NCBI GenBank assembly: GCA_016906335.1
Contig: JADEYG010000003.1
Location: forward strand, 496,001-560,000
Length of the DNA: 64,000 nt
Origin: Novakomyces olei
Taxonomy: Eukaryota
Reading direction: 5' to 3'
Position 1 is the first letter of the stretch, and each line of letters begins with the position of its first letter. Shown in pieces: positions 21,501 through 23,661 of the stretch. Below the pieces are notes generated by a model. The model had not been told where the DNA came from and searched no databases. It saw nothing but the letters and a program-made list of their open reading frames with translations. Made by a program: the position numbers and the translations under genes.

Positions 21501-23661
21501 AAAAGACGGGTGGGCCGTGTTTCGGAAATTAGAACAGGCATTGTTTTTGGAACTGTGTACTCAGCAACCAGGAACCCGAGTTTTCGCTTGCGGAGGCGGA
21601 ATAGTCGAGAGCGAGACGGTAAAAACTCTGCTTAAAGACCGAAAACTATCGGAGTTTATTCAAGTCGTCCACATTCGGCGAAACGTTGACGAGACTCTGA
21701 AATACTTGGAACAGGATAAAACCCGGCCAGCTTATATTGCCGAGGCACCTATTGAAGTATGGCGGAGACGAAAGGAGCTCTTTGAACTGTGCAGTGATCA
21801 CGAATATTATAGCAGTGTTCCACCGACGTCCGACTCGGCGGGTCCGGCGTTAGCACGATTCCTGTCTCGGGCTTTCAATTCTCGGCTTTCAGGTCATGTG
21901 CCCCACCCTAAAGTCGCGGGTCCGTTTATGCTTTCGCTTCCGCTTCGGGATGTAAGGCCGATCCTCGGCGTTTTGCCGGAGGCAACTCTCGGCGTTAGTG
22001 TGCTCGAACTCCGAGCGGATTTACTCGTAGAGCAAGCATGTGGCGGCGACGTTAGTGTAGCAGCAGTAGCGGCGGACACGGCCGATACAGCCGGACACGG
22101 AGGTCGGGTTTTAGAGTACGTTGCCGAGCAAACGAGTCTTTTGCTCACTCACTCGGCGTTACCGGTAGTATTTTCCTTATTGCCGGCCTCCGCCGGCGGA
22201 AAGTTTCCCGATAACGCCGTTCACTTGGCTCGGACTTTACTACTCGGCGCTTGCCGTTGGGGTGTTGATTTTGTTGAAGTCCCGCAAGTTTGGCCGGAGG
22301 ATTTGCAGAGACAAGTCGGCCGCTATCATACGGGAATAATCTCGGCCTGTTATGACAATAATAGACTTTATAAAAATGAAACAGGAAAAGAAACTAATCA
22401 TAGCAATTTTGTATTCGACTGGACGGACTTGGATGATGCTGTATTGCCGGACAGAAAAATTTCGGCGTTAAAACTTGTTTCCACGGCGAATAAAGACAGT
22501 ATTAATATACAACGGAACCTGGCTAGCTCCGGATTCGCGGAGGAAGCTGGAAAGAGACTCCGAGTTCCAGTGATTGCCTTTAACGCCGGCCGCTCCGGTT
22601 TCTTATCGCAGGCACTGAACCATACTTGGACTCCGGTTACGCACGAGTCCGTTCGGGCTGCCGCTGGTTTGATTGCTCAACGCGACGGCAAAAGACCGGG
22701 TCTCGGAGATAATAACGACGGAGATATGGATCTTGCTACTATCGCGGAGCTGGAAGCTTTAGTAGCCCTCTGCGGAGGCCGAAAGGGCAAGGAGTATTAT
22801 CTGTTTGGAAGCCCGATCGGGCATTCGCGTTCTCCGGCGTTACACAATGCATTGTTTCGGCGTTATGGATTTACTGGCAGCAGCTACTCCCTTTTTGAAC
22901 GAAGTGACGTGGCTGCCTGTGAGCCTTTACTAAGGTCCGCAAGTTTTGGCGGAGCTTCAGTTACGATTCCTCATAAGAGATCAATTATGAAATTTGTCGA
23001 CGAGTTGTCCGAAGAAGCTCGGCGAATAGGAGCAGTTAATACTTTGGTGCCATTTGAAGCCCCCGAATCTGAGAGCGAAAACGGAACAAACTCCGGATTT
23101 CGGCGATTACTCAGGGGTGAAAATACCGATTGGCTCGGCGTTAAGCTAGCACTTGAGCCGTTTGTTCCTGCTGCTTCGGCGGGAGTTATTATTGGCGCCG
23201 GTGGAACCGCTAGAGCAATAATCGAAGCATTGTTGCGCCTTAGAATTGCACCTATTTATTTGGTGAACCGTACAGAGTCGGCGATAGAAGAACTGCAGGG
23301 TGCTTTCCCGGAAGCGCCCTTAATTCCGTTGACTACTTTGGAAGCCGTCAAGTCCGTCGCATCCTCCGTAGCTGTAGCTGTTTCGGCGATACCGGCATCT
23401 GGAAATCTAGATCGGAGTTTAGAGCAACGGGTCCACGCTTTACTTGACGGAGCCCTCAACTCGGCCGCTGTGTTCCTCGATATGGCCTATTCTGCTCCGG
23501 GCGAAAGTACTCCGCTCATGGAATATGCGGAAAAAGCTGGGTGGCCCACTGTTCTTCCTGGATTGCAGGTTCTTGTTTTACAGGGAATGCAGCAGTTCAA
23601 ACTGTGGACGGGAATTGAGCCTTCTGAAGCAGTTTCAATGCAGGCATGTTTGGGTGAATAG
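18557..23661 (+). CDS. ARO1: Pentafunctional AROM polypeptide; intron 19142-19332
   Basis: DHQ synthase ([19 protein letters not shown]), EPSP synthase ([35 protein letters not shown]), shikimate kinase (GMRGAGKT), degenerate DHQase I, shikimate dehydrogenase ([35 protein letters not shown]). Confidence 0.98.

Follow-up and report, generated by a model that had tools for sequence, protein, structure and literature searches.

The AROM protein is a classic multi-enzyme and a target for antifungals and herbicides. In 2022, the type I dehydroquinase (DHQase) domain of AROM was described as a pseudo-enzyme in Candida albicans and some other Candida species (PMC9074039). According to that paper, C. 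albicans Aro1 (PDB 7u5s and 7tbv) bears an inactive type I DHQase domain, with the essential type II DHQase Dqd1 as a back-up; DHQase activity was undetectable for this protein, in which Gln occupies the column of the catalytic His, and H143Q abolishes the activity of Escherichia coli AroD. Aro1 of C. glabrata and C. parapsilosis is active by the same account (PMC9074039). No report of a dead DHQase domain in an AROM outside Candida was found in the literature searched. Here, an AROM gene is described from a 64,000-nucleotide stretch of contig JADEYG010000003.1 (positions 496,001 to 560,000; the whole stretch is termed the window, and all coordinates refer to it), in which the DHQase domain is very probably catalytically dead and the other four domains appear intact. 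It is an independent, more extreme case of the known pseudo-enzyme DHQase domain, and not a new principle.

The window DNA is eukaryotic and fungus-like, with a mean GC content of 0.42, and its AROM locus occupies 18557-23661 on the + strand, to which all AROM features below belong. Exon 1 (18557-19141) begins with ATG, ends at a GT splice site and codes for the first (N-terminal) half of the dehydroquinate synthase (DHQS) domain. It is followed by a predicted intron of 191 nt in phase 0 (19142-19332, GTATGA...CTAATTCACAG), which was read from the sequence, is AT-rich (GC 0.32 versus about 0.5 in the exons) and, when removed, makes DHQS_N and DHQS_C colinear. Exon 2 (19333-23661 including the stop codon, 4.3 kb) encodes DHQS_C, EPSP synthase (EPSPS), shikimate kinase (SK), the DHQase-like domain and shikimate dehydrogenase (SDH). 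The Pfam matches across both exons follow the canonical order DHQS-EPSPS-SK-DHQase-SDH of a five-domain AROM, with DHQ_synthase (PF01761) at 165 bits, DHQS_C at 107, EPSP_synthase at 361, SKI at 106, DHquinase_I at 54 (57 for the isolated segment), Shikimate_dh_N at 80, Shikimate_DH at 26 and SDH_C at 28. The EPSPS (19927-21228), SK (21379-21807) and SDH (22801-23646) domains appear intact, the last with two conservative changes (L>F and A>I), and the degenerate type I DHQase domain with its catalytic set lost lies at 21922-22671. Exon 2 aligns end to end with the AROM of Chaetomium thermophilum (6hqv_A, 1086 bits) and that of C. albicans (7u5s_A, 1029 bits). In a tree calculated without the DHQase columns, the window protein is nested in Ascomycota (support 99) and excluded from Pezizomycotina (95), its branch being long at 1.66 changes per column; since it is placed inside the fungi, it is orthologous with fungal AROM. 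Its closest match over the whole AROM shares 46% identity, and all named matches among the 120 listed are ascomycetes. The two-exon gene is the organism's AROM (Aro1), with the exon join predicted from the GT..AG intron.

Residue equivalences in the DHQase domain were taken from the translations of 19189-23661 and 21889-22770, and residue numbers given for the window refer to the 294-residue segment. Three alignments, namely a phmmer comparison with five solved AROM sequences (6hqv, 7u5s, 5swu and 5swv among them), a MAFFT alignment with 20 DHQase domains of fungi (ascomycetes, basidiomycetes and chytrids), and a MAFFT alignment with 34 further homologues, all agree on the catalytic columns. 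The labels Glu46, Arg48, Arg82, His143, Lys170, Arg213 and Gln236 follow the numbering of Salmonella typhi and E. coli; Glu46, Arg48 and Arg82 are presumably the residues of the fungal motifs, with Arg82 as the FT(I/V)R arginine, and K170M, E86A and Q236A occur in PDB titles. The numbers of Lys170 and of Arg213, which forms a salt bridge with the substrate carboxylate, are from PMC13247285, and that of His143 is from PMC9074039.

The ELRAD motif (22006-22020; E40, R42 and D44) is retained, as is the Lys of LKLV (22471-22473; K195) in the column of the Schiff-base nucleophile Lys170. Leu replaces the FT(I/V)R arginine (22180-22182; R98>L, FTIRT reading FSLLP), the Gln/Glu of the FT(I/V)R(T/S)xxQGG motif is Ala, and VDLE reads VEVP (22273-22284; D130>E and E132>P). 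The catalytic His143 is replaced by Tyr (22351-22353; SHHD reads ACYD), which, counted along the alignments, stands opposite H1179 of C. thermophilum AroM (6hqv) and Q1165 of C. albicans Aro1 (7u5s), the catalytic His position in both proteins according to PMC9074039. Within NMGxxGxLSR (22585-22611), NMG reads NAG (M233>A) and LSR reads LSQ (R241>Q, corresponding to Arg213). The AAGL of AAAGL replaces APGQ (22660-22671), turning Pro into Ala and the lid Gln (Gln236) into Leu; P259, G260 and Q261 are near-invariant in the 34 homologues, and the window has A, G and L. Among the residues expected of a type I DHQase, the Schiff-base Lys is thus present, and the general acid/base His, the two arginines of FTxR and LSR and the lid Gln are absent.

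Four insertions accompany these substitutions, and none of them occurs in any of the 20 fungal comparators. About 17 residues rich in Ala, Asp, Thr and Gly follow ELRADLL (22054-22104), 12 residues directly precede the Lys strand (22429-22464), four residues (KDSI) follow it (22492-22503), and about 11 residues form a Gly/Asp/Asn-rich linker ahead of the SDH domain (22693-22725). Their positions match the lower-confidence parts of an AlphaFold2 (AF2) model, in which the predicted local distance difference test (pLDDT) reaches 79-83 per block in the first insertion, 65-73 in the second and less than 50 at residues 270-276 in the fourth. An earlier note on this DNA had quoted the altered DHQase motifs, called the FTIR Arg, the catalytic His, the LSR Arg and the lid Gln lost, and mentioned several low-complexity insertions. 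All of its motifs were found in the translation at the place it gave, with IISACYD at exactly 22336-22356; the alignments, with Schizosaccharomyces pombe (5swv) among the references, put Leu, Tyr, Gln and Leu at the four positions, and the four insertions proved real against the 20 comparators.

The substitutions are rare among homologues. When 283 comparator proteins were aligned to a profile derived from 18 members of the 20-domain fungal set, the FTIR Arg column held Arg in 280 of 281 filled cells, the sole other protein lacking it being the partly aligned P0121. His was found in 255 of 274 filled cells of its column, Lys in 250 of 260, the LSR Arg in 245 of 250 and the lid Gln in 232 of 246, and the VDLE columns held Asp in 275 and Glu in 266 of the 283. 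As these columns are near-invariant, the losses in the window are far beyond chance. Among the best 120 whole-length AROM matches, with gaps not scored as substitutions, only the oddly long, partly aligned P0121 carried a substitution at the six columns. The 19 comparators lacking the His include proteins of other architectures; nine proteins were scanned by Pfam, and the six of these that lack the His (P0185, P0192, P0224, P0203, P0227 and P0196) comprise two AP_endonuc_2 + Glyoxalase_5 + DHquinase_I fusions, two QutR-like proteins and two with DHquinase_I alone, so that the five-domain AROM architecture occurs in none of the six. The two fusions, P0185 from Kalaharituber pfeilii and P0192, are large fungal proteins joining a xylose-isomerase-like barrel (AP_endonuc_2) and Glyoxalase_5 to a type I DHQase with His replaced by Cys and Lys by Arg, and each looks like a dehydroshikimate-dehydratase-like enzyme with a non-catalytic DHQase module.

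Metagenomic AROM genes gave a similar picture. A DHQase match was obtained in 71 of 80 loci, of which 68 read RRHKRQ at the six columns, two were cut off and one, L008, read RRIQRE. L008 (5509-6276 of a metagenome contig) is a yeast AROM with a Candida-type dead domain, in which the His column reads Ile, the Lys column Gln and the lid-Gln column Glu; with 68% identity to Meyerozyma AROM, it belongs to the known yeast phenomenon. Its DHQase domain passes the aroD equivalog cut-off at 155 bits despite the dead-type residues.

The decay is confined to the DHQase domain. With invariant columns defined in 27 comparators, the window keeps 27/27 in DHQS_N, 28/28 in DHQS_C, 104/105 in EPSPS, 13/13 in SK and 27/29 in SDH, versus 12/18 in DHQase, so that the four other domains retain 93-100% of theirs. 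In the relaxed set of columns conserved at 90%, the window keeps 28 of 44 in the DHQase domain, and six divergent control taxa including an oomycete keep between 35/48 and 43/44. Relative identity, taken as the identity of the window to 18 ascomycete AROMs divided by the mean identity between ascomycete classes, was 0.94 for DHQS_C (60% and 64%), the best-conserved part, 0.89 for SDH (43% and 49%), 0.86 for EPSPS (60% and 70%), 0.78 for SK (42% and 55%) and 0.60 for DHQase (31% and 52%). The oomycete DHQase domain is 36% identical to the ascomycete domains, above the 31% of the window.

Profile scores point the same way. The window domain passes the PF01487 gathering score (54-57 bits against a cut-off of 22.2), and against the aroD equivalog TIGR01093 it reaches 35.4 bits, more than 100 bits short of the cut-off of 139.3, versus 189.5 bits for the ordinary metagenomic AROM L077 and 155.4 for L008, the yeast AROM with a dead catalytic dyad. 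The corresponding Pfam DHquinase_I scores are 57 bits for the window, 207 for L077 and 182 for L008. As both scores lie far under those of L008, degradation of the window domain has gone far beyond that of the Candida-type dead domain. The proposal that AROM carries an apparently dead DHQase domain beside four intact ones thus stands, given the lost His, two arginines and lid Gln, the 35.4 bits and the conservation elsewhere in the protein. A foreign insert was rejected as the origin of the DHQase domain, its GC, GC1, GC2 and GC3 (GC content overall and at the three codon positions) matching those of the neighbouring domains.

The dead domain nevertheless is confidently predicted to fold as the triose-phosphate isomerase (TIM) barrel of its family. 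AF2 run on a 35-sequence alignment gave a mean pLDDT of 82.9 and a predicted template modelling (TM) score of 0.83, with the alternating strand-helix pattern of a barrel, and the best Foldseek matches of the model were AROM DHQase domains, headed by 5swu_A with a TM score of 0.80. Structural alignment with VIA-align gave a Z score of 27.3 and a root-mean-square deviation (rmsd) of 2.5 Å over 241 residues to S. pombe AroM (5swv), a Z score of 26.7 to C. albicans Aro1 and one of 21.9 to S. typhi DHQ1. Because an identity of 31% with 12 of the 18 invariant columns kept is far above what a freely drifting linker would retain, we infer continued selection on the structure of the dead domain. The DHQS and DHQase (DHQD) homodimers form the centre of the ten-domain crystal structure of C. 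thermophilum AROM, as described in PMC6851490, and dimerisation of C. albicans Aro1 involves contacts of the DHQase domain according to PMC9074039. In the window's AROM, the relic is most probably retained as a spacer or dimer contact in the middle of the homodimer.

C. albicans Aro1 is the closest described system. Both proteins are five-domain AROMs in which only the DHQase domain lacks the catalytic His, the fold and the other four domains being kept, and in both the LSR arginine is Gln (LSQ). As in the Candida cases, it is in the DHQase domain only that the catalytic dyad of Aro1 is substituted. The two differ in that C. albicans is a Saccharomycotina yeast, whereas the window is Taphrinomycotina-like; His is Gln there and Tyr here; the FTxR arginine is kept there and lost here; and the Lys, lost in C. 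albicans by the account of PMC9074039, is kept in the window. Compared with the 182 Pfam bits of the Candida-type L008, the 57 bits of the window and its four insertions indicate that decay has gone much further. C. albicans Aro1 has Dqd1 as its partner, whereas a type II partner in the window's organism is suggested by analogy.

The active DHQase domains of S. pombe (5swv), Aspergillus fumigatus (5swu) and C. thermophilum (6hqv) share with the window domain the position in the polypeptide, ELRxD, the Lys strand and the TIM-barrel fold (Z scores of 26.4-27.3 and rmsd of 2.3-2.7 Å against the window model). At the columns occupied in the window by Leu, Tyr, Gln and Leu they have Arg, His, Arg and Gln, and they are 28-30% identical to the window domain. 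QutR-type repressors likewise carry dead DHQase-like domains, and the QutR and Qa-1S quinate repressors are homologous to the three C-terminal domains of AROM (SK-DHQase-SDH). The QutR-like proteins P0227, with SK, DHQase and SDH matches, and P0196, with SK and DHQase matches only, resemble the window in having a DHQase-like domain with the catalytic His replaced, by Thr and Arg respectively. In contrast to the window, with five domains of which four appear intact, they are devoid of DHQS and EPSPS and score 138-141 Pfam bits; both arginines are kept, and Lys is kept in the one that reads RRRKRS, the other reading RRTMRQ. Identity as a QutR or Qa-1S repressor was rejected, as the window protein has DHQS and EPSPS domains.

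The lineage of the organism was examined with the PAB1 gene of the window (7781-9994, - strand), which is 79-83% identical to P0312, a protein assembled from public reads; its identity is 59-64% with Pneumocystis, 56-66% with Lipomycetaceae and 57-65% with Schizosaccharomyces. In PAB1 trees, calculated in a quick and a careful version, the window and P0312 form a clade (support 100/100) joined to Schizosaccharomyces (80/92) and grouped with Pneumocystis and the Taphrinomycetes (82/86), and a Saccharomycotina + Pezizomycotina clade (99/95) excludes the window. A tree constrained to unite the window with Saccharomycotina is worse by 31 log-likelihood units (p 0.016 in an approximately unbiased (AU) test, the group having been named after the tree was seen). 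By these trees the organism is a member of a Taphrinomycotina-like lineage that has been sparsely sampled and has at least one relative, P0312, in public data. The full catalytic set is retained in the AROMs of Schizosaccharomyces octosporus, Saitoella and Meyerozyma, and the window AROM is 41% identical to that of Meyerozyma.

The loss is independent of those in Candida because PAB1 places the window outside Saccharomycotina + Pezizomycotina, and because no residue of the catalytic set is missing from these three AROMs and Aro1 is active in both C. glabrata and C. parapsilosis. A shared origin with the losses in Candida was rejected on the PAB1 tree, the AU test and the low identity to Meyerozyma. 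The earlier note had cited the inactive DHQase domain of C. albicans Aro1 and its separate type II enzyme, correctly by the account of PMC9074039, and had proposed an independent event in a distant lineage, which is borne out by the PAB1 trees, the AU test and the catalytic sets of the three relatives.

Close relatives of the DHQase region were sought in several collections. The 5.8-billion-protein set yielded 13 matches, the best at 33% identity, and an exhaustive HMMER search of 1.84 billion representatives gave 74 bits at best and nothing at E <= 1e-30. A metagenome scan with the DHQase domain gave 170 pattern matches and no relative among them; a scan with exon 2 gave 80 loci, 70 of them with a tblastn match to the domain, at no more than 31.5% identity in the best 30 matches listed. 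The ESM Atlas returned only generic DHquinase_I clusters.

From the domain comparison and the Candida analogy, the reading preferred here, put at roughly 65%, is that four AROM domains are functional, the DHQase relic is dead but folded and step 3 of the pathway is carried out by a separate enzyme. The intact DHQS domain would cyclise 3-deoxy-D-arabino-heptulosonate 7-phosphate (DAHP), and 3-dehydroquinate would leave AROM for a separate enzyme that dehydrates it, which by analogy would be a type II DHQase like that reported for C. albicans (PMC9074039). Dehydroshikimate would go back to the intact SDH, SK and EPSPS domains, and the dead barrel would remain folded between SK and SDH, linking the two and contributing a dimer contact. 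The enzyme converting 3-dehydroquinate to 3-dehydroshikimate would thus be encoded elsewhere and is most plausibly a type II dehydroquinase; the earlier note, too, had proposed a stand-alone DHQase for this step. Such intermediates are known to pass between AROM and free enzymes in fungi: overproduction of AROM rescues an Aspergillus nidulans qutE mutant on quinate, according to PMC12610400 citing Lamb et al. 1991.

Several points weigh against this reading. The loss of activity is deduced from residue identity, and the retained Lys and ELRxD Glu, Arg and Asp could reflect chance, structural need, or residual ligand binding or chemistry. The splicing of the gene is predicted from the DNA, and its expression is presumed. 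The alignment supplied to AF2 was built of active homologues and favours the family fold. A C. albicans strain in which the DHQase domain was swapped for a (GSS)6 linker grew normally, as reported in PMC9074039, and a required scaffold role is therefore weakened. Neither DHquinase_II (PF01220) nor a second DHquinase_I was found in 146 of the 251 window open reading frames (ORFs) of at least 70 aa together with the two AROM ORFs; the 146 comprise 20 large and 126 further ORFs, the remaining 103 overlap larger ones, and exons shorter than 70 aa would be missed. In the collections searched, no relative is close enough to calculate the ratio of non-synonymous to synonymous substitution rates (dN/dS) on the dead domain.

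The retained LKLV Lys, the ELRAD Glu, Arg and Asp and the kept fold would also suit a DHQase that still works with a rebuilt active site, with the Lys as Schiff-base nucleophile, the Tyr in the role of general acid/base and the carboxylate bound by other residues. Tyr can serve as a general base in other enzymes, for instance in type II dehydroquinases, and the replacement DHQase of the preferred reading is itself proposed by analogy. Yet six of the 18 invariant columns are lost together, among them the two arginines, the lid Gln and the Met of NMG, and the TIGR01093 score lies far below the equivalog cut-off. Only two comparators have Tyr at the His column, neither of them a five-domain AROM (P0224 is devoid of the Lys and P0253 does not extend to the Lys column), and a His to Gln change alone kills E. 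coli AroD by the account of PMC9074039. A rebuilt site is consequently regarded as unlikely. It is quite improbable that the gene is a second, partly redundant AROM copy beside a canonical AROM with an active DHQase elsewhere in the genome. The search covered the 64-kb window, and fungi do have extra DHquinase_I paralogues with changed catalytic residues, such as QutR-like proteins and the AP_endonuc_2 + Glyoxalase_5 + DHQ fusions; but a redundant gene would not be expected to hold 93-100% of the invariant columns in four domains, the six Pfam-checked comparators without the His all differ from it in architecture, and the contigs of the likely source run total only 17.8 million letters, which suggests a small genome. 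That the organism has no other dehydroquinase at all, with step 3 performed by the rebuilt Lys/Tyr domain or by an enzyme unrelated to both DHQase types, is likewise given little credence.

A truncated pathway, in which dehydroshikimate, shikimate or quinate-derived intermediates are imported from a host or substrate and step 3 is unneeded, would fit the long AROM branch and the small contig set as signs of a dependent lifestyle, and the fungus was present at low depth in a run labelled as another organism. This reading is highly improbable: DHQS keeps all of its invariant columns and has the highest identity ratio, yet makes only the substrate of the missing step, and such conservation makes little sense if dehydroquinate were a dead end. 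An artefact, in which the odd motifs stem from faulty sequencing or assembly or from an overlooked intron, could appeal to a gene model predicted from the DNA, but it is already largely refuted and can hardly be the explanation. Run X2, which comes from a study other than that of the probable source run X1, has contigs that agree letter for letter with the window over 21800-22365 and 22439-22732, so the sequence is not an assembly slip. The frame is open, the alignment with homologues is colinear on both sides of each changed motif, and GC and GC3 are as in the other domains. The AT-rich stretch after ACYD aligns without net change in length, and the only GT..AG pairs after ACYD span 55 and 89 nt, which are not multiples of three.

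Should this second, independent and much further decayed case in a Taphrinomycotina-like lineage hold, the loss of the DHQase domain would be a recurrent evolutionary outcome and not a Candida oddity, and the folded domain would have long outlasted its catalysis, pointing to an architectural role within the AROM dimer. Annotation pipelines assigning all five activities to each AROM would then place step 3 wrongly in such genomes. The window domain offers a natural end-point for asking what the DHQase domain does after catalysis is lost. Were the organism to be without any other dehydroquinase, it would hold a new solution to a textbook pathway step.

Other genes of the window surround the AROM locus. 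A glutathione S-transferase gene (17173-17983, + strand) lies directly upstream and contains an intron of about 49 nt (approximately 17476-17524) with a GTATGA 5' splice site, as in the AROM intron. The ORFs at 2787-5546 (+, 920 aa) and 11310-12605 (+, 432 aa) match no Pfam family at E <= 0.001, and a tRNA scan of the window found none. A divergent histone-fold pair consists of a core histone (28938-29459, -, 159 bits) and a probable H4 (29486-29908, +, CENP-T_C at 30 bits). The catalytic domain of a HECT ubiquitin ligase (37800-38844, -) is spread across two or more ORF pieces; larger ORFs upstream of it (38751-41169) gave no Pfam match and possibly belong to this gene as its remaining part. 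At 57767-59652 (-), a multi-exon gene for an amino-acid transporter shows Aa_trans matches in four ORF pieces, with a weak Trp_Tyr_perm match in the first.

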